NCBI GenBank assembly: GCA_041687695.1
Contig: JAWLBL010000008.1
Coordinates: 160,001-224,000 of the forward strand
Length of the DNA: 64,000 bases
Source of the DNA: Myxococcota bacterium
GTDB lineage: Bacteria > Myxococcota_A > UBA9042 > PHBI01 > JAWLBL01
Reading direction: 5' to 3'
Shown: in pieces, positions 32,743 through 43,607 of the stretch
Layout of the letters: each line of letters opens with the position of its first letter
How positions within the stretch are numbered: position 1 is the first letter of the stretch
The notes under the pieces: model-generated
Seen by the model: only the letters and a program-made list of their open reading frames with translations
What the model was told of the DNA's origin: nothing
Database searches by the model: none
Translations under genes and position numbers: made by a program

Positions 32743-35142
32743 ATGGTCTCGAGCCCGCGGGCCGACATAGGATGCGACCGCGTGAGACGTCTCTTCGCCA
32801 GCCTGCTGCCGACCCGCACCGCCCGCATTTCCGCGGGCGTGCTGGCGGCCATGTCCGTCGCGCTCTGCTTCGTGCCGGGCTTCGGGTCCCTCGGCTATTA
32901 CTCGAGCCTGGCGCTCGCGCTGGTCGGCGGCGTCCTGACGGGCCTGGTGGGCGCCAGCGTCGCGCGTCGGACGGCCGAGTCCCAGACCGGCACGCCTGGC
33001 GGCCCGCGTGTCTCGACGGCGTTCTGGGCCGCGGCCCGCACGACGCTGGCCCTGTTGGCCGTTCCGCCGCTGGTGCTGCTGTTCAACAGCCTGTGGGTCA
33101 AGAACTGCGACCCCATCGGCAGCGTCGGCTTCTATGTCGCCGGCGCGGGGCTGTCGATGCTGTTCGCCTCGCAGGTGGGCGCCTTCGCGGGCCTGTGGCG
33201 CCGCCGGACGGGGCAGGGGCTCTTGCTCTTCGTCGCCTTCTGGTTGGCGTTCGTCCTGCGCGATCTGGCGCACCTGTACCTCGAGCCGCCGATCTTCGCC
33301 TACAACGCCTTCGCCGGCTTCTTCTCCGGGGCCGTCTACGACGACCTCATCGAGCTGGACGGGCGCCTGGCGGCCTTCCGGCTGAGCAACCTGGCCCAGC
33401 TGGCCGTGCTCTGGGGCGCGGCGGCCCTGCTGTGGGACCCGGCCGAGCGGCGCTTCCGGCTGGCCCGGCTGAGCGAGGGCCGCGTCCGCACCTGGGCGGC
33501 GCTGGTCGCGGCGGTCGTGGTCGCCGCGGGGCTACACGGGGCGCGCGGCCACCTCGGCTTCGAGATCGACCGCGCCCACATCGAGCGCGTCCTGGGGGGC
33601 CGCCTCGAGAACGACCGCATCGTCCTGGTCTACGACCGCGACGTCATCCCGCCCGACGAGGCGCGGCGCCTGCTCGAGGACCACACCTACCGCCTGGAGC
33701 AGCTCGACCTGGCCCTCGGCGAGCGCTTCCCCGAGCGCATCACCAGCTACGTCTACGGCTCGTCGCGCCAAAAGCGCCGCATGATGGGCGCCGACCGCGT
33801 CTACATCGCCAAGCCCTGGGTGCGCGAGATCCACATCAACCGCGTGCCCTACGGCGCGGCCGTCATCCACCACGAGCTGGCGCACGTCGTGCTGGGCGCG
33901 TGGGCGCCCGGGCCGCTGCACGTCCCGGCGCGGATGTGGCTGTTCCCGCACATGGCCATCGTCGAGGGGGCCGCCGAGGCGATGGAGTGGTACGGCGGAA
34001 GCATGACCCTTCACCAGTGGAGCGCCGCCATGCGCCGCGAGGGGCTGGCGCCCGATCTGGCGAGCATCATGGGCCCGGACGGGTTCTGGTCGCAGGCCGC
34101 CGGCAAGGCCTACACGCTCAGCGGCTCGTTCATCCGCTACCTGCTGGACACCCACGGCCCGGCGCCCTTCCGCGCGCTATACGGCGACGGCGACTTCGAG
34201 GCGGCCTACGGCCGTCCGCTGCCGGCGCTCATCGCCGAGTGGGAGGCCTTCATCGACGGCGTGCCGCTGCCGGACGACGCGCTGGCGCTGGCGCGCGAGC
34301 GCTTCGACGTCAAGGGCATCTTCCACCGCACCTGCCCGCTGGAGATCGCGCGCCTCGAGGCGCAGGCCTCGGCGCTGGCCGACGCCGGCGAGTACGACGG
34401 GGCCATCGCGCTGCACCGCCAGATCGTCCGCTTCGTCCCCAAGGACGCGCGAAAGCGCGTGCCCATCGTCGAGCTGCTGGCCCGCCGGGGCGACGCCGAC
34501 GGCACGCAGCGCGAGGTGGCCGAGCTGTTGGCCCTGGGCAACGTCGACCCCGTCACGCGGGCCTACGTCCGAGAGCTGTCCGGCGACGCGCTGTGGCGCG
34601 CGGGCAAGTACCTGGACGCGCTGAAGCTGTACCAGACCCTGGCCGCCGAGCCGCAGAGCGAGGACCGCCTGCGCAACGTGCTGGTCAAGGCGGCCGTCCT
34701 GGCGAGCGGCCAGCGCGAGCCCATCCTGGGGCCCTACCTGCTGGGGCGCGGCAGCCGGGACGCCGTCGAGTACCTGGTCGCGGCGGTGGCCGACCTGCCC
34801 GGCGACACGCTGGCGCTGTACCTGCTGGGCCGGCGCCTGTCGAGCGAGGACGTCCACGCCGAGGCCGTCCGCGTCCTGCGCGCCGTCATCGCCGCGCTCG
34901 ATGGCGCGGACGGCGGCCCCGACCGGGGACGTGACCCGCTCGACGACGCGCTGCGCCGCGAGTCGCTGCGGCTGATGGCCCGCAGCCTGTTCTACGTGGG
35001 CGAGCTGGAGGAGGCCGAGCGCGCCTTCCTGGAGGCGGCCCAGCTGTCGCCCAAGGACGGCCAGCGCCTGTGGTACCAGGACTGGGCCAGCCGCGCGCAG
35101 TGGCTGAAGAAGCGCCTGCGCACGGCGGGCAACTTCATGTGA
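32743..35142 (+). CDS. Multi-TM membrane protein with gluzincin-like peptidase motif and C-terminal TPR-like helices
   Basis: About 7 TM segments, HELAH followed by EGAAE, helical repeats; start uncertain. Confidence 0.7.
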   Translation: MVSSPRADIGCDRVRRLFASLLPTRTARISAGVLAAMSVALCFVPGFGSLGYYSSLALALVGGVLTGLVGASVARRTAESQTGTPGGPRVSTAFWAAARTTLALLAVPPLVLLFNSLWVKNCDPIGSVGFYVAGAGLSMLFASQVGAFAGLWRRRTGQGLLLFVAFWLAFVLRDLAHLYLEPPIFAYNAFAGFFSGAVYDDLIELDGRLAAFRLSNLAQLAVLWGAAALLWDPAERRFRLARLSEGRVRTWAALVAAVVVAAGLHGARGHLGFEIDRAHIERVLGGRLENDRIVLVYDRDVIPPDEARRLLEDHTYRLEQLDLALGERFPERITSYVYGSSRQKRRMMGADRVYIAKPWVREIHINRVPYGAAVIHHELAHVVLGAWAPGPLHVPARMWLFPHMAIVEGAAEAMEWYGGSMTLHQWSAAMRREGLAPDLASIMGPDGFWSQAAGKAYTLSGSFIRYLLDTHGPAPFRALYGDGDFEAAYGRPLPALIAEWEAFIDGVPLPDDALALARERFDVKGIFHRTCPLEIARLEAQASALADAGEYDGAIALHRQIVRFVPKDARKRVPIVELLARRGDADGTQREVAELLALGNVDPVTRAYVRELSGDALWRAGKYLDALKLYQTLAAEPQSEDRLRNVLVKAAVLASGQREPILGPYLLGRGSRDAVEYLVAAVADLPGDTLALYLLGRRLSSEDVHAEAVRVLRAVIAALDGADGGPDRGRDPLDDALRRESLRLMARSLFYVGELEEAERAFLEAAQLSPKDGQRLWYQDWASRAQWLKKRLRTAGNFM

Positions 35143-35203
35143 CGCGGCTTTTTTTGACGGCCGGCGCGCCCCCCGCGACAGTGCGTCGCGGAGGGATACG
35201 ACC

Positions 35204-35413
35204 ATGGACGTCAATCCGGAGATCGCGCGTCACCTCGACCGGGCGCTCGCGGAGGCGGGGCTGCCGGGCCTGTCGCTGCGGCAGGTCGGGGACGTGTTCA
35301 CCCTGAGCGCCGGGCTGCCGATGACCCCCGAGACGCTGCGCGCCTTGATGCGGGCCTGGGAGGCCTTCGAGGAGGCCGGCCTGCCACGCGAGACGCAGGG
35401 ACAGGCCGGCTGA
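35204..35413 (+). CDS. Small hypothetical protein (69 aa)
   Basis: GGAGGG RBS and upstream TTGACG-N17-GACAGT; fills the intergenic gap. Confidence 0.55.
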   Translation: MDVNPEIARHLDRALAEAGLPGLSLRQVGDVFTLSAGLPMTPETLRALMRAWEAFEEAGLPRETQGQAG

Positions 35414-35419
35414 GGCTCG

Positions 35420-35752
35420 TCAGGCCGGCTCTTCGCTGAGGAGCTCGCGCTTGCGCTCGACGTCCTTGAACTCGTCGGCCGTGTCGAGGGGCTCCTTCTG
35501 CTCGGTGATGTTGGGCCAGGAGCCCGCGAGCCGCTCGTTGAGCTCGACGTACTCCTTCCACTTGTCGGGGAGGTCGTCCTCTTCGAAGATGGCGTTGACC
35601 GGGCACTCGGGTTCACAGGCCCCGCAGTCGATGCACTCGTCGGGGTTGATGACGAGCATGTTCTCGCCTTCGTAGAAGCAGTCGACCGGGCAGACGGTCA
35701 CGCAGTCGGTGTACTTGCACTTGATGCAAGGCTCCGCAACGATGTAGGCCAT
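35420..35752 (-). CDS. fdxA: 7Fe ferredoxin (FdxA type)
   Basis: [29 protein letters not shown]...[17 protein letters not shown]. Confidence 0.95.
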
Positions 35753-35884
35753 TGAGTTCTCCGTAGTCGGCCATGGGTCGGGCGCGATGACGCGCGGTGG
35801 AGTCGAAGGCGCCGGCGACAATGCCACTTGCGGCCGGCGTGGGCAACAGCGGACATGGCCCGCGCGGGGCCCGGTCCGAGCGGG

Positions 35885-36385
35885 TCAGGGCTGCGAGTCC
35901 CTGAGCTCGGGCTCGACGAGCTGCAGGGCGGGGCCGAGGTGGCGGCGCAGGCGCGTGAAGTCGCGCTCGCCGAACAGGCGTGACAGCGGGCCGATGCGGC
36001 CGCGGCTGACGAAGACGCGGTCGGCGCCGAGGTCGGTCGCGAGGCGCAGGATGCTGTCGGCGAAGCGGCCCGAGGCCATGCGCGTGACGCACGGCACCCC
36101 CGCTTCCTGGGCGGCGGCGCTGACCTCGGCCAGGCGCTCGGCGCCCGCGCTCTGGGCGCACGCGTGGGCGAGGTCGCCGATGGCGCGCGTCTGGCCGGCG
36201 CCGACGAAGCCGCGTGTGGTCAGGCACTCTCGCAGGTGTTCCTGGCGGTCCTGGTCCTCGAGGTAGACCACGGTCAGGCGGGCCCCGGTGGCGCGGGCTT
36301 CGGCGAGGGCGGCGTGGAGGAGCGTGTCGCCGATGCGCGCGGGCGTGAGGATGGCGAGGATGTGACGGTCGGACCGAGCGGTCAT
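35885..36385 (-). CDS. Universal stress protein family
   Basis: HILAIL...RLTVVYLE...GRFADSILRLA...ADRVFV; downstream of a DASS transporter. Confidence 0.65.
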   Translation of the reverse strand: MTARSDRHILAILTPARIGDTLLHAALAEARATGARLTVVYLEDQDRQEHLRECLTTRGFVGAGQTRAIGDLAHACAQSAGAERLAEVSAAAQEAGVPCVTRMASGRFADSILRLATDLGADRVFVSRGRIGPLSRLFGERDFTRLRRHLGPALQLVEPELRDSQP

Positions 36386-36404
36386 GGCGAGACCCTCCGA
36401 GCCT

Positions 36405-37901
36405 TCACGGCGCCCACAGGACGCCGAGCAGGGGCCACCAGAACTTCATGAGCAGAAAGACGCAGCCGAAGCCGATGAGGTTGAGCCACAGGCCGCTCTG
36501 CGCGACCTGGCGCGGGGTGTAGTAGCCGGCCGACCAGGCGATGGCGGTCACCGGGGTCGAGATGGGGAACATGAACGCGAAGCCGGACGGTAGCACGATG
36601 CACATCGTCATGGCGCGCGGGTCGAGGCCGTAGTGCTCGGCGAGGGTGAGCGCGGGCGGCATGAGCATGGCGACGACGGCCGAGTTGCTCATCAGCTCGG
36701 TGAGGGTGCCGCTGAGCAAGGCGATGACCATCATCAGGACGAGGGGGGACAGCTCGCGGCCGCCGAGGACGGCCTCGGTCAGCCACAGGGCGGCGCCCGA
36801 GCGGTCCATCGCGCTGCCCAGGGCGATGGCGCCGCCGTACATGACGATGACCCCCCAGTTCACGTTCTCCTCGACCTCGGGCCAGGTGACGGCGCCGAGG
36901 GCGAAGAGGGCGGCCATGGCCAGGATGGCGATGTTGGCGATGCCCAGGGTGTCGCCGAGCGCGGCCCAGGCGGCGATGGTGACGACCAGGACCAGGGCGA
37001 CGGCGCGCTCGCGGCCGCTCATCTTGCCCATGTCGCGCAGGCGCCCCTCGAGGACGGCGATGGCGTCGGCCGTCGAGGCGACCTCGGGCGGGAAGCGCCA
37101 GGCGAGCATGACGGCGCCGACGGCCAGCATCAGCACGACCAGCGGCGCGCCGAAGGCGATGAACTCCATGAAGGTGATGGTCCAGGCGTGGCCGGTCGCC
37201 TCCTCGAGCAGGCCGATGGCGAGCGGGCCGCGGCCGCCGCCCAGGACGGTCAGGCTCGAGCCGATGATGCAGCCCCAGGCGAGCGCGAAGAACAGCGCCG
37301 CGCCCATGCGGCTGCGCAGCGCCTTGAGCTTCATGGCGCGCGCGATGTCGAGGACGATGGGGAAGACCATCGCGGCGACGGCGTGGCCGCTCATCACGGT
37401 CGAGGCGACGGCGCACAGGCCGAAGACGGCCAGGACCAGGCGGCGCGGCGTCCCGCCGAAGGCGCGCACGGTCAGGGTGGCCAGGCGCTTGGACAGCCCC
37501 GATCCGATGAGGGCCGCCGAGAGCATGAAGGCGCCGAGGACGAAGAAGACGACCTTGGAGCCGAAGAACTGGTAGGCCTCCTCGGCGCGCATGACGCCGA
37601 AGAGCGGCAGCGAGGCGATGGCGACCAGGCTGGTGATGGCCAGCGGCAGGAGCGAGGTCACCCACAGCGTGCCGCAGAGCGCGAAGATGCAGAGCGTGTT
37701 CCAGCCGGCCTGGGCGAGGCCGTCGGGGGGCGGGACGCGCAGGAGCAGGGCGAAGCAGGTGACGACGAAGGCCAGCCAGAGCTGGCGCTTCAAGCGGCTG
37801 AGCAGGACGATCGCGATGGGGCGGCGATCGATCTCGAACTGGCGGGCCGCCGGCGGCGCTGGGGGTGAAACGGAGGGCGGGCTGGGCTGCGGCTGGGCCA
37901 A
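36405..37901 (-). CDS. DASS/SLC13 divalent anion:Na+ symporter
   Basis: LPLAITSL, GLSKRLA, VNWGVIVMYGG, TELMSNSA, FAFMFPISTP; many TM helices; TTG start inferred. Confidence 0.88.
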   Translation of the reverse strand: MAQPQPSPPSVSPPAPPAARQFEIDRRPIAIVLLSRLKRQLWLAFVVTCFALLLRVPPPDGLAQAGWNTLCIFALCGTLWVTSLLPLAITSLVAIASLPLFGVMRAEEAYQFFGSKVVFFVLGAFMLSAALIGSGLSKRLATLTVRAFGGTPRRLVLAVFGLCAVASTVMSGHAVAAMVFPIVLDIARAMKLKALRSRMGAALFFALAWGCIIGSSLTVLGGGRGPLAIGLLEEATGHAWTITFMEFIAFGAPLVVLMLAVGAVMLAWRFPPEVASTADAIAVLEGRLRDMGKMSGRERAVALVLVVTIAAWAALGDTLGIANIAILAMAALFALGAVTWPEVEENVNWGVIVMYGGAIALGSAMDRSGAALWLTEAVLGGRELSPLVLMMVIALLSGTLTELMSNSAVVAMLMPPALTLAEHYGLDPRAMTMCIVLPSGFAFMFPISTPVTAIAWSAGYYTPRQVAQSGLWLNLIGFGCVFLLMKFWWPLLGVLWAP

Positions 37902-37906
37902 GCGGG

Positions 37907-39169
37907 CTAACCGTTGTCGACGACGCCGACCTCCCGCACGCGCAGGGCGCGGCGGAGATCGCTGAGGCGCGCGGAGGTGCGGCGGGCGAGGCGCGTGCCC
38001 ATGACGCGGTGGCGCAGCGACGACCAGAAGCCGTTGTCCTCGCTGAAAAAGCGCGCGTCGAGGGGCGTGGTGACGATGGCGATGTCGCGGACGAGGTTGC
38101 AGCTCAGGCGGCGCCTGCGGACGGCCTGGTAGAGGTGGCCGTACAGGCCGGCGAGCTCCTCGAGGGAGGGCTGGAAGCGCTCGATGTCGCTGTCCTTGCG
38201 CATGTCGCGGCCCTTGAAGGGGCGGTAGATGGGCAGGACGGGCAGGACGCCCAGGGAGGTCAGGGTCTCGATGCCCTCGTGGGTCGAGGCGAGGGGCTCC
38301 AAGCCGACGATGAGGTGGCAGGCGACGCCGCCGGCCGGGAAGACGGTGGTGGCGTAGGCGAGGGCGTCGAGGAAGCGCTGGCGGCCGATGGCGCGGGCGG
38401 GGCCGGGGCAGATGCGGTCGAAGCGCTCGGGGTCGAAGATCTCGAGGTTGTAGCTGACCGCGTCGACGCCCATCGCGTAGGTGCGGTCGATCCAGTCGTC
38501 GGTCTCGGGCGGCAGGGCGTCGACGGCGACCAGGACGTCGAAGTGCTTCTTGATGGCGGCGACGTAAGGCTCGAGGAAGGCGACGCCGCCGTCGCGGGTG
38601 CCGAGGTGGCCTACCGACAGGTAGACCATGTCGATGGGGTTGCCGTCGCGGGCGACGCGGATGGCCTCGAGGACGTCGTCGACCGGCAGGCCGCCGTGGG
38701 TCGGGGCGTCCTGGCCGACGCTGCAGAAGCGGCAGCGGTCGGCGTCGGTCAGGAAGGCGCAGCGGTTGGTGGGCGACAGGGCCAGGTAGGGGCCGTGGAC
38801 GGTGCCGACGCGGCCGAAGGGCAGGCCGGTCGAGGTCCGGTGGCCGTAGAAGTGGGGGTGGTGCGAGACGCGGACGGGCGTCCGGGGCGCGGTGGGGCCG
38901 GCGACGGTCAGGGCGTACCCGTCGCCGTGGCGCACCAGCTCGTAAGGAGAAGCGTGGGTGACGTCGCGCTGGATGGGGGCGGAGACCCACGTCTCCTGCG
39001 GCAGCACGAGGTCGAGGTCCTCGGCGCTGCCGAACAGGGCGTGGCCGGTCGCGCCGAAGCCGTCCTGCTCGAGGGCGGCGCGCACGTCGGGTGGCAGCCG
39101 CAGGCCGCGCATCATCAGCTCGAGCTTGAGCAGGCCCGGGTTGGAGAGGATCTGGGCGGGCGTGTTCAT
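37907..39169 (-). CDS. Radical SAM protein with CX8CX2C motif (MSMEG_0568-like clade)
   Basis: NRCAFLTDADRCRFCSVG, VSYNLEIFD, HLIVGLEP, YRPFKG. Confidence 0.8.
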   Translation of the reverse strand: MNTPAQILSNPGLLKLELMMRGLRLPPDVRAALEQDGFGATGHALFGSAEDLDLVLPQETWVSAPIQRDVTHASPYELVRHGDGYALTVAGPTAPRTPVRVSHHPHFYGHRTSTGLPFGRVGTVHGPYLALSPTNRCAFLTDADRCRFCSVGQDAPTHGGLPVDDVLEAIRVARDGNPIDMVYLSVGHLGTRDGGVAFLEPYVAAIKKHFDVLVAVDALPPETDDWIDRTYAMGVDAVSYNLEIFDPERFDRICPGPARAIGRQRFLDALAYATTVFPAGGVACHLIVGLEPLASTHEGIETLTSLGVLPVLPIYRPFKGRDMRKDSDIERFQPSLEELAGLYGHLYQAVRRRRLSCNLVRDIAIVTTPLDARFFSEDNGFWSSLRHRVMGTRLARRTSARLSDLRRALRVREVGVVDNG

Positions 39170-39621
39170 GACGGCACGAACCCCCCGGCCTCGTCGCTCC
39201 AGGCGAAGGTCGCGAATCCGCGCACGCCGTCGTCCTGGGCGTCGAAGACCACGTGGGCGACGCCCGGGTAGAGCGGCCCGTCGCCGAAGGGTGACAGGGC
39301 CTGCTGGACGTCCTCTTCGGAGAAGTAGGCGCCCACCCGGACGTGGCTGTGGAAGATGGCGACGACGGTCTTGCCGTCGGCTTCGGCCCGCTCGATGAGC
39401 AGCGGGTTGAGCAGGTAGGCGCGCTCGGCCGTGCGCGGGTAGGTGTCGGGGTCGAGCGCGTGGTACTTGTCGGCGAGGTTGTCGGCCAGGACGAGCTCGG
39501 GGCCGTCGGGGCCGGCGAGGAGCAGGCCGCAGGCCTCGCGCGGGAACCAGGCCATGATGTGGCGGTCGATGGCGGCGCGGAGTTTGGGCTGCGCCAGGAT
39601 GGACTGTGGCGTCGGCGTCAT
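39166..39621 (-). CDS. JAB/MPN (M67, Mec-like) metalloprotease
   Basis: PREACGLL and JAMM motif FHSHVRVGAYFSEED. Confidence 0.9.
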   Translation of the reverse strand: MTPTPQSILAQPKLRAAIDRHIMAWFPREACGLLLAGPDGPELVLADNLADKYHALDPDTYPRTAERAYLLNPLLIERAEADGKTVVAIFHSHVRVGAYFSEEDVQQALSPFGDGPLYPGVAHVVFDAQDDGVRGFATFAWSDEAGGFVPS

Positions 39622-40007
39622 GGGCGGGCCTCGTCGGGCGCGGCCCAGGCGTGGCCGGGCGCGGCGCCCGAGAGGTGGGCCAGCGCGCTGAGGGCGGCCA
39701 TGGCGCCGGCGAGGCGATCGTCGGCCGGGGCCGGGGCGACGACGTGGGCGTCGGCGGCGGGCGGGGCCAGGGAGACGTCCGGGTTGAGGTCGGCCAGACG
39801 CGGGCCCAGGCGGTCGGCGAGGGCGGGGGACAGGGACAGGCGTCCGACGCCGGCGGCGGCCAGGTACAGCGCCGCCTCCTCGGCCGCGCGGCCGTCGCCC
39901 TGGACGTGGGCGGCCGCCGCGAGCAGGCGCGTCTGGCCGGCGCCGCCCACCTCGGCGAGCAGGACGTGGCGCGCGTAGCGCTGGATCTGGGTCTCGGTCA
40001 GGGACAT
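39618..40007 (-). CDS. Short degenerate ThiF/MoeB-like (E1) subunit
   Basis: QIQRYARHVLLAEVGGAGQTRL and LYLAAAGVGRL...LNPDV; lacks GxGxxG, the Zn cysteines and the catalytic Cys. Confidence 0.75.
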   Translation of the reverse strand: MSLTETQIQRYARHVLLAEVGGAGQTRLLAAAAHVQGDGRAAEEAALYLAAAGVGRLSLSPALADRLGPRLADLNPDVSLAPPAADAHVVAPAPADDRLAGAMAALSALAHLSGAAPGHAWAAPDEARP

Positions 40008-40011
40008 CGGT

Positions 40012-40290
40012 TCAGCGGCCGCCCGCGATGGCGGGGACGATCTGCAGCTCGGCGCCGTCGGCCAGGGGCGTGTCGAGGTTGTCGAGGAAGCGGATGTCTT
40101 CCTGGTTGGCGTAGATGTTGATGAAGCGGCGGACGTTGCCCTGCTCGTCGCACAGCTTGCTCTTGATGCCCGGGTGGGCGCCCTCGAGGTTGTCGAGGGC
40201 GGCGCGGACGCTGTCGCCGTCGACGCTGACGGCGTCCTGGCCGGCGGCGAACTTGCGGAGCGAGGCGGGGATCTTGATGGTCACGGGCAT
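40012..40290 (-). CDS. MoaD/ThiS/CysO family ubiquitin-like sulfur carrier
   Basis: IKIPASLRKF...RRFINIYANQEDIRFL...IVPAIAGG-R. Confidence 0.92.
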   Translation of the reverse strand: MPVTIKIPASLRKFAAGQDAVSVDGDSVRAALDNLEGAHPGIKSKLCDEQGNVRRFINIYANQEDIRFLDNLDTPLADGAELQIVPAIAGGR

Positions 40291-40301
40291 CGGCGGGTTC
40301 C

Positions 40302-41207
40302 TCAGAGCGCGGAAGGGGCGGGGGCGGGCGCGCGGCGGACCAGCACGCGGAAGCGGTCGCGGGCGATCTCGCCGGCGGCCAGGATCTGGTGGCCGTCCTC
40401 GCGCAGGCTGCGCGGGACGTTGCGGGCCGGCTCGCCGCGGCGCATGACGACCTCGACGAGGGCGCCGGGGGCGAGGGGCTCCAGGGCGAGCTTGGTGCGG
40501 ACGTAGGTCATGGGGCAGAGGTCGGCGGTCACGTCGACGCGGCGCGCGAGGCCGCCGCAGGTGGGGCAGTCGGCGCCTTCGGGGAGCGGGACGTGGCGCA
40601 CGCGGCCGCGCAGGCCGTCCACGGTGGTGACGAAGCCGGTGGCGGCCGCGACGTCGCCCGACAGGAGCGAGATCGCACGGAGGGCCTGCAGGTGGCCGAC
40701 CACGCCGGCCATGGCGCCGAGCACGCCCGAGCGGGCGCAGGTCAGGACCTCGTCGGGGGCGGGCGGCGTCTCGAACAGGCAGCGAAAGCACGGGCCGTGG
40801 CCGCCCGCGACCGCGACGACCAGCCCCTCGAAGCGGATGACGCCCGCGATGACCGCGGGCAGGCCGCGTGCGACGGCGAGGTCGTTGACTAGGAAGCGCG
40901 CCGCCGGGTCGTCGGTGCAGTCGAGGACCAGGTCGACCCCGTCCAGGAGCTCCGCGGCCGTGTCGTCGTCGAAGCGGCCGAACACGGGCTCGACCTGGAC
41001 GCCGGGGACCACCTGGGTCAGGCGCTCGGCCGCGCAGGCGACCTTGGGCCGGTCGAGGTCGGCCGTGCCGAACAGGACCTGGCGCTGCAGGTTCGACAGC
41101 TCGACCCGATCGGGGTCCACCAGACGCAGGGCGTGGCCTGCCTCTGCCAGACTGAGGGCGGCCGGCGCGCCGAGGCCGCCGACGCCGATGATCAGGACCG
41201 AACCCAT
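40302..41207 (-). CDS. ThiF/MoeB adenylyltransferase (E1) fused to a C-terminal TusA/SirA sulfurtransferase
   Basis: IGVGGLG, DPDRVELSNLQRQ, DCTDD, CFRC, TCARSGVLG, CPTC; then DLCPMTYVRTKLALE TusA domain. Confidence 0.9.
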   Translation of the reverse strand: MGSVLIIGVGGLGAPAALSLAEAGHALRLVDPDRVELSNLQRQVLFGTADLDRPKVACAAERLTQVVPGVQVEPVFGRFDDDTAAELLDGVDLVLDCTDDPAARFLVNDLAVARGLPAVIAGVIRFEGLVVAVAGGHGPCFRCLFETPPAPDEVLTCARSGVLGAMAGVVGHLQALRAISLLSGDVAAATGFVTTVDGLRGRVRHVPLPEGADCPTCGGLARRVDVTADLCPMTYVRTKLALEPLAPGALVEVVMRRGEPARNVPRSLREDGHQILAAGEIARDRFRVLVRRAPAPAPSAL

Positions 41208-41231
41208 CGCGGTGTCACCTCACCGGGCCAG

Positions 41232-41264
41232 TTTGTAATAATGGTGACCTACTAAGTCAACAAT
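41232..41264 (-). promoter_or_regulatory. Promoter (TTGACT-N17-TACAAA) overlapped by an Rrf2/IscR-like palindrome
   Basis: AT-rich island; ATTGTTGACT-TAGTA-GGTCACCATT on the minus strand. Confidence 0.55.
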
Positions 41265-41302
41265 AGCCCCGGGCCACGCTCCAAGCTGCTGGAACGGCGT
41301 CG

Positions 41303-41332
41303 AAAACGCAAACGGCGACCCGAGGGTCGCCG
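41303..41332 (-). terminator. Rho-independent terminator after ahcY
   Basis: CGGCGACC-loop-GGTCGCCG stem followed by TTTGCGTTTT. Confidence 0.75.
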
Positions 41333-41371
41333 CCTGGTGGCCGTCTTCGGGCCGGGGCCTGAGCCAGGCGC

Positions 41372-42631
41372 TCAGGTGCCCGCCGAGTAGTCCGTGGCGT
41401 ACGTGATCTGCTCCTCGGTCAGGGCGTCGATGGCGATGCCCTGGGTCTGCAGCTTGATGGTCGCGATTCGCTGGTCGTTCTCGGCCGGCAGCGTGTAGAC
41501 CTTGCGGCCTAGATCCTGGTGGGTCGAGGCGACCATGCACAGGGCCTGCGCCTGGTTGGCGAAGGACATGTCCATGACCTCGGAGGGGTGCCCCTCGGCC
41601 GCGGCCAGGTTCACCAGGCGCCCCTGGCCGATGACGTAGACGCGGCGGCCGTCCTCGAGGGTGTACTCCTCGTTGTTCGGGCGGACGGTGCGCTTGCGCG
41701 ACGCCAGCGTCTCGAGGTCGCCCAGGTTCAGCTCGCAGTCGTAGTGGCCGGTGTTGCAGACCACCGCGCCGTCCTTCATCGAGGCGAAGTGGCGCTTGAC
41801 GATGACGTCCTTCATGCCCGTCGCGGTGATGAAGATGTCGCCGATCTTGGCGGCCTCGTCCATCGGCATGACCCGGTAGCCCTCGAGCGTCGCCTTGAGG
41901 GCCGCGGTCGGCTTGATCTCGGTCACGACGACGTTGGCCCCCATGCCCTTGGCGCGCTGCGCGACGCCGCGGCCGCAGTGGCCGTAGCCGGCGACGACGA
42001 AGGTCTTGCCGGCCAGCAGGATGCTGGTCGCGCGCAGGATGCCGTCGAGGCTGGACTGGCCGGTGCCGTAGACGTTGTCGAAGTCCCACTTGGTCTCGGA
42101 GTCGTTGACCGCGATGACCGGGTACTTGAGCGCCCCGTCATCGGCCATCGCGCGCAGGCGGTGGACGCCGGTGGTCGTCTCCTCGGTGCCGCCCTTGATG
42201 CTCTCGCACAGCTCCGGGAACTTGGAGTGCACGCGGAAGATGAGGTCCGCGCCGTCGTCGAGCGTCAGGGTCGGCTTGAAGTCCAGGGTGCGGTCGATGC
42301 ACCAGTAGAACTCCTCGGTGTTCATGCCGTGCCAGGCGTAGATGCTGAACCCGTCGGCCGCCAGGGCCGCGGCGATGTCGTCCTGGGTCGACAGCGGGTT
42401 GCAGCCCGACCAGCTGATCTCGGCGCCCGCCGCGCGGAGCGTGCGGATGAGGACCGCCGTCTCCTTCGTGACGTGCAGGCAGCCGGCGATGCGCTCGCCG
42501 GCGAGCGGCTTGGTCCGCTCGAACTCCTCGCGCAGCGCCATCAGCACCGGCATGCGGCTCTCGGCCCACTCGATCTTCAGACGCCCGCGGTCCGCGAGGC
42601 CGATGTCCGCCACCTTGTAGTTCGTCGTCAT
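41372..42631 (-). CDS. ahcY: Adenosylhomocysteinase
   Basis: GCLHVTKET, CNPLSTQD, LDDGADL, EETTTGV, FDNVYGTGQS, GRLVNLAAAEGHPSEVMDMSFANQ. Confidence 0.96.
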   Translation of the reverse strand: MTTNYKVADIGLADRGRLKIEWAESRMPVLMALREEFERTKPLAGERIAGCLHVTKETAVLIRTLRAAGAEISWSGCNPLSTQDDIAAALAADGFSIYAWHGMNTEEFYWCIDRTLDFKPTLTLDDGADLIFRVHSKFPELCESIKGGTEETTTGVHRLRAMADDGALKYPVIAVNDSETKWDFDNVYGTGQSSLDGILRATSILLAGKTFVVAGYGHCGRGVAQRAKGMGANVVVTEIKPTAALKATLEGYRVMPMDEAAKIGDIFITATGMKDVIVKRHFASMKDGAVVCNTGHYDCELNLGDLETLASRKRTVRPNNEEYTLEDGRRVYVIGQGRLVNLAAAEGHPSEVMDMSFANQAQALCMVASTHQDLGRKVYTLPAENDQRIATIKLQTQGIAIDALTEEQITYATDYSAGT

Positions 42632-42659
42632 CGTCTTGGTCTCCAATGTTACCTGCCCG

Positions 42660-43607
42660 CTACTCGGCGAGCTTGTCCTCGAGCTCGGGCAGCTCGACCA
42701 TCGTGCCGTTCAGGAAGAAGGTCGGCGTCCCATCGACCTTGAATCGGTTGGCCTCGTCGAGGTCGCGCGCGAGGACCGCCACGAGCTGCGGGTCCTTCAT
42801 GTCGGCCTCGAAGCGCGCCATGTCGAGGCCCGCCTGCTGGGCGAGCTCTCGGATGACCTGGGAGGTCAGGCGCTTTTGGTTCTCGTACAGGAGATCGTTG
42901 AGCGCCCAGAACTTGTCCTGGCGCGCGGCGGCGAGCGAGGCGACGGCGGCCTCGCGGGCCATCGGGTGGATGTCGAGCGGCAGGTGCTTGACGTACAGCA
43001 CCGCGTCGCTACCCGCCACCAGCTCCTTGAGCGGCCCGGACGCCGCCCGGCAGTAGGGGCACTGGTAGTCGGTGAACTCGACGACGACGTGCTTGGCCTT
43101 GGGGTCGCCGAGGCGCGGTGAGCCCGTGAAGTCGAACTCGGCCTTGACCGCCGTGCGCTGCAGCTCCTTGAGCAGCTCGCGCACCACCTGCTTTTTGCTC
43201 AGGCCCTGACCGACCAGCGCGACCGTCTGGTTCGCCAGCGTCGTCGCCCGCTCGCAACGCTTGGGGTCGTGCAGGCTCTCGAGGAAGCTGCGAGGCGCGC
43301 CGCAGGGGTCGAACTGCTCGGAGAAGACCTGCAGCAGGATCTCCCGCTCGGCCGCGTCCAGGTCCTTGACGTCCAGCCAGGCCGGCAGGGCCGGACCGGT
43401 CGCCGGGCGGGCCGCCTGCGCGTCGGCGCCCGCGGTCGTCGGGCTGGTCGCCACGGGCCGCGACTCGCCGGCCGCGGCGGGCCGGTCCTCCCGGGTGTTT
43501 TGACAGACGCACTGCGTCAGCGTACAAAACGCCAGGATCACGAGCGAAATCGGGCGAGGCAGCGCGCCGCGCGTCCGGGCCCCCGCGATGGGTCTCGAGC
43601 TCGTCAT
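42660..43607 (-). CDS. DsbA-family thioredoxin-fold protein
   Basis: VEFTDYQCPYC, KHLPL, GTPTFFLNG. Confidence 0.87.
   Translation of the reverse strand: MTSSRPIAGARTRGALPRPISLVILAFCTLTQCVCQNTREDRPAAAGESRPVATSPTTAGADAQAARPATGPALPAWLDVKDLDAAEREILLQVFSEQFDPCGAPRSFLESLHDPKRCERATTLANQTVALVGQGLSKKQVVRELLKELQRTAVKAEFDFTGSPRLGDPKAKHVVVEFTDYQCPYCRAASGPLKELVAGSDAVLYVKHLPLDIHPMAREAAVASLAAARQDKFWALNDLLYENQKRLTSQVIRELAQQAGLDMARFEADMKDPQLVAVLARDLDEANRFKVDGTPTFFLNGTMVELPELEDKLAE

Follow-up and report, generated by a model that had tools for sequence, protein, structure and literature searches.

What does a radical S-adenosylmethionine (SAM) enzyme do in an operon that otherwise encodes a sulfur carrier, the proteins that serve it and an anion transporter? 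The question is raised by a 64,000-nucleotide stretch of contig JAWLBL010000008.1 of a Myxococcota bacterium (assembly GCA_041687695.1), here called the window. Its minus strand carries seven genes in a row. These encode an E1 activating enzyme fused to TusA (E1-TusA), a ubiquitin-like protein (Ubl), a short E1-like protein, a JAB metalloprotease, a radical SAM protein, a transporter of the DASS family and a universal stress protein (USP). The original prediction took the radical SAM protein for the only candidate acceptor of carrier sulfur, in an undescribed pathway coupling anion uptake to radical sulfur insertion. Gene content, linkage, distributions, operator sites and motif complementarity were observed directly, and the prediction is supported in part. 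We place the operon in a known class of Ubl/E1/JAB/TusA sulfur-assimilation operons, of which it is a trimmed version; it seems to be the part of sulfate assimilation that handles uptake and the carrier in an uncultured, myxobacteria-like group. We somewhat favour a reading in which sulfate enters through a DASS transporter partnered by the radical SAM protein, and a carrier of the CysO/HcyS type feeds a cysteine synthase in trans.

The radical SAM protein follows the transporter and not the carrier. A set of 101 related genomes served for the comparison of gene profiles. Orthologues of the radical SAM protein (at least 45% identity) were found in 19 of them, and 6 further genomes contain distant family members only. 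DASS orthologues (at least 41% identity) were found in 20 genomes, among them all 19 with the radical SAM protein; the one genome with the transporter alone is a 62% complete assembly. Co-occurrence holds where the two genes are unlinked (G019, G027, G038 and G046), and fusions of the two proteins, 881 amino acids long, form two clusters with five sequences. The carrier, by contrast, occurs without the radical SAM protein in 25 of the 41 genomes that encode the Ubl, one of these being a single-contig genome from the same order, and JAB is present in 53 of the 101. Among the 19 radical SAM genomes the Ubl was found in 16 and JAB in 18, the misses being fragmented assemblies. From these profiles, together with relocations and fusions, we conclude that the radical SAM protein goes with the transporter and is dispensable to the carrier. 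The radical SAM protein may itself need the carrier.

The pair of radical SAM protein and DASS transporter is best read as a replacement of the ATP-binding cassette (ABC) sulfate importer of relatives. Sbp is present in 19 of the 101 genomes, and its overlap with the radical SAM protein or the DASS orthologue is zero; none was found in the host genome, which is about 8 Mb in size and 99% complete. Within the order (18 genomes), 13 genomes carry the pair, 3 carry Sbp instead and 2 have neither, and both states occur within one genus. At the corresponding locus, the three Sbp genomes of the order (one is a single contig) retain E1, Ubl, short E1, JAB and ferredoxin. In G017, which is congeneric with two of them, the pair stands under its own operator and away from the carrier genes. 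The literature searched, whose coverage left most subscription papers outside, holds no paper that treats this clade of radical SAM proteins or pairs such a protein with DASS, and no described function for the protein came to light there. A predicted complex of one DASS chain (alignment of 46 rows) with the radical SAM protein (alignment of 61 rows) scored 0.29 and 0.24 against a mark of 0.32 and was not used as support.

Linkage of the radical SAM gene to the carrier genes had been expected to be conserved, and JAB indeed lies directly upstream of it in 17 of the 19 orthologue-bearing genomes (of the other two loci, one is split and one runs off the end of a contig). A metagenome scan gave 261 relatives; the metagenome locus counts come from the best 80 of these 261, and the loci are partly redundant. 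DASS comes after the radical SAM gene in 58 of the 67 metagenome loci with room for it. Complete assimilation operons stand at the distant loci (40-45% identity); they encode a ThrC-like protein, an AsrC-like reductase, TusA, Ubl, a CysM-like protein, JAB, E1, radical SAM protein, DASS and USP, together with cysC, cysH and sat. Upstream content in the 31 loci with at least 4.5 kb was Ubl (25), CysM-like (24), ThrC-like (19) and AsrC-like reductase (12). Downstream, the 30 loci with at least 5 kb hold DASS (29), sat (21), cysH (19) and cysC (12), and sbp/cysT importer genes occur in none of these 30. The claim that the radical SAM protein is the sole candidate acceptor is not supported, given the CysM-like genes of these operons, a carrier module that persists without it in 25 of 41 genomes and a strict co-occurrence that joins it to the transporter.

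The operon class is that of the ThiS/MoaD-JAB-E1-SirA sulfur-metabolism operons of Iyer, Burroughs and Aravind (2006, PMC1779556; Table 1, row 4e), as far as the available part of that paper describes them. Ubl, JAB, an E1 without rhodanese and SirA/TusA are all present here. The links of row 4e to sulfite reductase, phosphoadenosine phosphosulfate reductase, ATP sulfurylase and adenosine phosphosulfate kinase recur in the distant homologue operons or in the regulon or genome of the host. Unlike those operons, the one in the window has none of these four genes and no sulfhydrylase; radical SAM, DASS and USP genes take the place of the ABC sulfate importer, and the E1 is split over two genes. 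The term 'Radical SAM' occurs 0 times in the main text of PMC1779556, and 'radical' 0 times in its 3 supplements.

Family membership of the transporter is indicated by PF00939 (191.6 bits), by fold homology to VcINDY (E 1e-35) and by an orthologue that scores above the TIGR00785 cut-off. From its gene context, sulfate is the probable substrate. The first substrate motif differs from that of VcINDY, and His152 and Arg203 are invariant in 46 of the 46 rows of the DASS alignment; read from the residues, the altered motif would suit an oxyanion. The host encodes cysDN, cysC and cysH outside the operon, and a CysD-like gene is present in 15 of the 19 radical SAM genomes. The candidate explanation that these genomes lack sulfate activation and need to import a precursor of sulfite was therefore rejected.

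Alternatively, the transporter could import another sulfur compound (a sulfonate, thiosulfate or an organosulfur anion), which the radical SAM protein would cleave to sulfite or sulfide for the reductase and the carrier. Strict co-inheritance and fusion fit such an import-then-convert pair, as do the departure from VcINDY with its invariant His and Arg and a co-regulation in the host with sulfite reductase, not with cysDN or cysH. We nevertheless regard this alternative as unlikely, given that distant operons have cysC, cysH and sat directly behind DASS-USP and no sbp/cysT, that the pair and the sulfate ABC importer are mutually exclusive and that most of the radical SAM genomes hold the CysD-like gene.

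The radical SAM protein scores 35.3 bits with PF04055 (cut-off 29.5), which places it in the superfamily. Its cluster motif, CX8CX2C at C137/C146/C149, is invariant in 61 of the 61 rows of the alignment; C254 is the only other invariant cysteine, and position 284 is Cys in 33 rows and Ser in 28. The structure model (predicted local distance difference test, pLDDT, 88.4) has a barrel fold that matches radical SAM structures. Among solved folds the lipoyl synthases come closest (Z 17.8 and 17.7, root-mean-square deviation 3.1-3.5, 241-253 residues); HydG (Z 16.6) and then ThiH, PylB, NosL, HydE and BioB follow in a range of Z 15.4-16.6. A sequence search of solved structures returned a single weak match, ThiH, and the ESM Atlas returned unnamed radical SAM clusters only. 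The profile NF045502 (variant_rSAM) was passed with 175.9 bits (cut-off 125), whereas TIGR04043 (MSMEG_0568 family; 103.5 against 303.7 bits) and LipS2 (21.7 against 270 bits) were failed. The protein belongs to the same wider family as NF045502 and TIGR04043. It stands apart from both as a separate clade, marked by a C-terminal extension of its own and by linkage to a transporter. Sister radical SAM clades at 25-34% identity stand in unrelated gene contexts. One (27-29% identity; L157:7469-9839 and L158:6158-8226) lies beside nucleotidyltransferase-like and CDP-alcohol phosphatidyltransferase-like genes, named from reading, which hint at lipid chemistry. Another (32-34% identity; L156:7262-12775) precedes genes for a molybdopterin-oxidoreductase-like protein and an Fe-S subunit.

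LipA is the best structural match of the barrel, and LipS2 a weak profile match only. Unlike LipA, LipS1 and LipS2, the protein has CX8CX2C in place of CX3CX2C, and no lipoyl-domain context was seen. The auxiliary-cluster ligands of LipA (CX4CX5C, RSSY) and of LipS1/LipS2 (three extra Cys), as given in the available part of PMC9585515, are absent from its sequence. Lipoate synthesis was rejected on these motifs. All sulfur insertases described in that part of the paper carry an auxiliary cluster. Because the ligands are absent here, two readings are left: the protein is no sulfur insertase, or its sulfur comes from outside.

The latter is what the original prediction amounted to; to it we would add DASS as the likely target or conduit. 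The radical SAM protein would be an insertase without a sacrificial cluster and would transfer sulfur from Ubl-thiocarboxylate or TusA persulfide into the transporter, a partner protein or a small molecule. Lipoyl synthases as closest folds, yet one invariant Cys outside the triad, would agree with this, and so would JAB directly upstream in 17 of 19 genomes, the presence of JAB in 18 and of Ubl in 16 of these, one JAB-radical SAM fusion and the absence of an operon-type CysM from a 99% complete host genome. We judge it improbable. The carrier module lacks a radical SAM protein in 25 of 41 genomes, and in G017 the radical SAM-DASS pair has moved off from the carrier genes under its own operator. 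HydG, ThiH, PylB and BioB trail LipA by no more than about 2.5 Z units, and function does not follow from a common fold. The insertases of PMC9585515, in the part available, all have the auxiliary cluster, and in the chuangxinmycin cluster a radical SAM protein beside a carrier and JAB is yet proposed to be a methyltransferase (PMC5925218, in the part available). Because of the acceptor gap in the host genome, described below, the idea of a carrier-fed radical enzyme stays alive as a long shot.

Turning to the carrier arm of the favoured reading, the closest solved match of the Ubl is CysO (3dwg chain C, E 2.7e-20). The Ubl of relatives ends in GG, with or without a few further residues, and JAB is present either way; its retention with a Ubl that has a bare GG end would fit a role in product release. 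E1-TusA aligns to ThiF from residue 30 onward, without the N-terminal RxxR arginine-finger segment, and its TusA domain carries a CP motif. The short E1-like protein aligns to ThiF residues 3-60; it keeps RxxR and lacks GxGGxG and SNLQRQ. At 31 of 31 loci with such a headless catalytic E1 there is an arginine-finger-only partner, three of these partners being fused to JAB, and the distant loci encode a full-length E1 with both catalytic motifs and RxxR. By their motifs, E1-TusA and the short protein are probably complementary halves of a heterodimer. The E1s of SUMO and NEDD8 (SAE1-UBA2, NAE1-UBA3) likewise pair one catalytic subunit with another that has the arginine finger only. Unlike the eukaryotic heterodimers, the putative pair described here is bacterial, has a minimal partner of 129 amino acids, would act on a sulfur carrier and has no E2 in its operon. 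Yeast Tcd1-Tcd2 shows the same division into one subunit with the catalytic motifs and another with the arginine finger only (PMC13139853), and a heterodimer of this kind is the simplest interpretation here; the available part of that paper also gives the arginine finger as not essential in MoeB and ThiF. The state of TusA varies: some relatives have it as a fusion, distant ones as a separate protein, and in several close ones none was found. A neighbouring family joins the pseudo-E1 and JAB in a single protein of roughly 350 amino acids (L245-L248, L250, L252). The Ubl gene at L052:7820-8102 (G002) is frameshifted in the assembly.

A CysO-CysM thiocarboxylate route to cysteine is reportedly known from Mycobacterium tuberculosis. 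The system in the window resembles CysO-CysM-Mec+ with MoeZ in its CysO-closest carrier and its intact JAB motif. It differs in having no adjacent CysM and a host CysM of the enterobacterial type, and in an E1 that carries TusA, not rhodanese, the MoeZ-like gene being on another contig. This separate MoeZ-like E1 (G000:C18:75663-76856, minus strand) has an N-terminal rhodanese-like part and probably serves MoaD and ThiS. A SAMP/TtuB-like protein conjugation system with JAB as deconjugase, the other option of the original prediction, is very improbable: the Ubl reaches 61.6 against the SAMP1 cut-off of 60 and JAB is kept where maturation is unneeded, but CysO is the much closer solved Ubl, the E1 scores 172 against the UbaA cut-off of 450, JAB scores 22.6 against the desampylase cut-off of 130, and gene context and operator are assimilatory. 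Neither an E2 gene nor TtuA lies within the operon; the genome at large was not searched for either.

As the original prediction stated, cysM, metY, thiG and moaE are all absent from the operon. In the host genome ThiS adjoins ThiG and MoaD adjoins MoaE; each has its own carrier, so the Ubl of the operon is a third one, and service to ThiG or MoaE was ruled out. Elsewhere the host encodes cysK with a cysE-like neighbour, cysM, cystathionine beta-synthase and thrC. The best acceptor candidate is CysK, both for its regulon and because its gene adjoins the carrier genes in G029 and at two metagenome loci. Nine relatives encode a stand-alone, long-branch orthologue of the operon-linked CysM, a candidate carrier-dependent synthase (L282-L284, L286, L287, L289, L290, L292, L293); it was not found in the host genome. 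A fourth Ubl-like gene of the host (G000:C22:17413-18958, minus strand), missed by the ThiS profile, ends in GG and is followed by a probable beta-propeller protein of 395 amino acids.

The predicted theme of sulfur uptake and relay is borne out by gene context and by an assimilatory regulon. A 25-bp inverted repeat lies upstream in 15 of 20 related loci, nearby in 2 more and is absent in 3. We built a matrix from 14 loci picked for having the site (12 distinct sequences, that of the window excluded). Across the 8-Mb genome it scored 43.2 at the operon, 35.6 before the sulfite reductase gene and 20.0 at the next distinct site, while 8 column-shuffled matrices gave 0 or 1 matches scoring at least 20. 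The pattern is present in 16 of the 18 genomes of the order. The operator sites fetched from relatives, which leave out those of nine more distant genomes, number 32; they precede sulfite reductase (11), the Ubl operon (5), cysK-cysE (3), the sbp ABC operon (2) and a YeeE-like pair (1). Because the operator is shared with sulfite reductase, cysK-cysE and sbp genes, the operon belongs to a small assimilation regulon.

The sole other strong operator copy of the host genome precedes a sulfite-reductase-like gene and a small, conserved partner (G000:C11:29087-31267, minus strand; L173, L174). We take the small gene to be DUF934; it passed no NCBIfam equivalog cut-off. In G017 an operator precedes two small YeeE/YedE-like membrane genes, a possible thiosulfate importer named from reading and not from a profile (L222:3071-4017). 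The operator presumably resembles IscR-type sites. There are 4 Rrf2 genes in the host genome, and an Rrf2 gene heads 1 of the 80 metagenome loci; an Rrf2 protein as regulator is a guess.

Several observations weigh against the favoured reading. The acceptor of carrier sulfur was not identified in the host genome: its CysM is nearest to enterobacterial CysM (327 bits, against 196 to that of M. tuberculosis) and falls outside the clade of operon-linked CysMs and their stand-alone orthologue (support 99/95; 55 rows, one search), and 0 of 3 MetY-like candidates reached the MetY cut-off. A CysK/CysE pair can use free sulfide, and for this reason the carrier would be redundant for cysteine. The host cysK-cysE has no strong operator site, and 10 of the 32 fetched operator sites have no recognisable sulfur gene behind them. 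Five SulP-family genes in the host genome could import sulfate. The exclusion between radical SAM protein and Sbp has a Fisher p of 0.02, which is overstated as kin genomes are not independent, and because of this relatedness it may rest on few events. Finally, the radical SAM gene stays behind JAB when DASS relocates (G019, G027, G038, G046), and one JAB-radical SAM fusion is on record as a single sequence.

The features are listed in Table 1. The seven-gene order had been read correctly from the sequence, with gaps of 11, 4, -4, -4, 5 and 19 bp, and so had the probable terminator that separates ahcY from the operon (hairpin z -3.6; equal folding in 0 of 200 shuffles) and the 7Fe ferredoxin downstream on the same strand. 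The operon had also been given its own promoter. A promoter scan upstream found no sigma-70 consensus; what stands as the upstream element is the conserved operator-like repeat. A search of positions 35000-43000 against Rfam returned nothing at gathering score. The DASS gene begins with TTG, and its start position is uncertain.

Table 1. Features of the operon and its flanks (positions in the window)
Feature	Position	Strand	Basis
E1-TusA (ThiF/MoeB catalytic E1 fused to TusA)	40302..41207	-	profile matches to ThiF and TusA
Ubl, CysO-like ubiquitin-fold sulfur carrier ending GG-R	40012..40290	-	ThiS profile; best solved match 3dwg chain C
Short E1-like pseudo-E1, 129 amino acids	39618..40007	-	weak ThiF fragment; motif reading
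JAB metalloprotease, HxH-x7-S-x2-D motif intact	39166..39621	-	Prok-JAB profile
Variant radical SAM protein, LipA-like barrel	37907..39169	-	Radical_SAM profile; C137/C146/C149 and invariant C254
DASS/SLC13 transporter, probable sulfate importer	36405..37901	-	Na_sulph_symp profile; substrate from context
USP, universal stress protein	35885..36385	-	Usp profile
FdxA-type 7Fe ferredoxin	35420..35752	-	family match above cut-off; downstream of USP
GC-rich hairpin with U-rich tail, probable ahcY terminator	41303..41334	-	folding against shuffles
Operator-like inverted repeat, conserved	41240..41264	-	TTGTTGAC-N7-GTCWMCWTT; also before sulfite reductase gene

AhcY was rejected as part of the system, being adjacent at just 1 other locus examined. 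USP comes after DASS in many distant loci and is lost from most close relatives. In four relatives that lack the radical SAM gene or have it elsewhere, the ferredoxin gene remains beside the Ubl operon; in three others it lies near the relocated DASS gene on the opposite strand. A membrane protein of 799 amino acids with TPR repeats (window positions 32743-35142, plus strand) is convergent to the ferredoxin in several relatives.

In the scheme that we favour, two separable sulfate-assimilation modules would share one promoter and one sulfur-responsive operator. In the first, DASS would import sulfate, and the radical SAM protein, by strict co-inheritance and fusion, would be its obligate cytoplasmic partner; our first guess would be a protein that, with [4Fe-4S] and SAM bound, activates or matures the transporter according to sulfur status. 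The chemistry of the second is drawn throughout by analogy with CysO-CysM-Mec and HcyS, the Wolinella HcyS thiocarboxylate pathway being reportedly a precedent within the same row 4e class. Sulfite would come from CysDN/CysC/CysH encoded elsewhere, and sulfide from the co-regulated sulfite reductase, probably fed by FdxA. JAB would trim the terminal Arg of Ubl-GG-R, the heterodimeric E1 (catalytic half and arginine-finger half) would adenylate the Ubl, and TusA or sulfide would form the thiocarboxylate. A pyridoxal phosphate-dependent sulfhydrylase elsewhere (CysK or CysM here, the operon CysM in distant relatives) would then build cysteine on the carrier, and JAB would release the finished product.

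The carrier arm extends a known pathway class, and the split E1 offers a simple bacterial model of active/inactive E1 pairing. The point of interest is a radical SAM protein that is inherited, relocated and fused with DASS and that, in several uncultured lineages, takes the place of the ABC sulfate importer. Quite improbable is a sulfate importer dependent on a radical SAM enzyme of its own, which would draw on Ubl thiocarboxylate instead of a sacrificial Fe-S cluster to modify or gate the transporter. If true, sulfur flux would control its own entry via radical chemistry, by a carrier-fed sulfur insertase of a kind absent from the literature searched. Should the radical SAM protein prove to be required for sulfate uptake by DASS, this would be a new role for such enzymes, either in transport control or in carrier-fed sulfur insertion, and it would fill a gap in sulfur uptake in many metagenome-assembled genomes.

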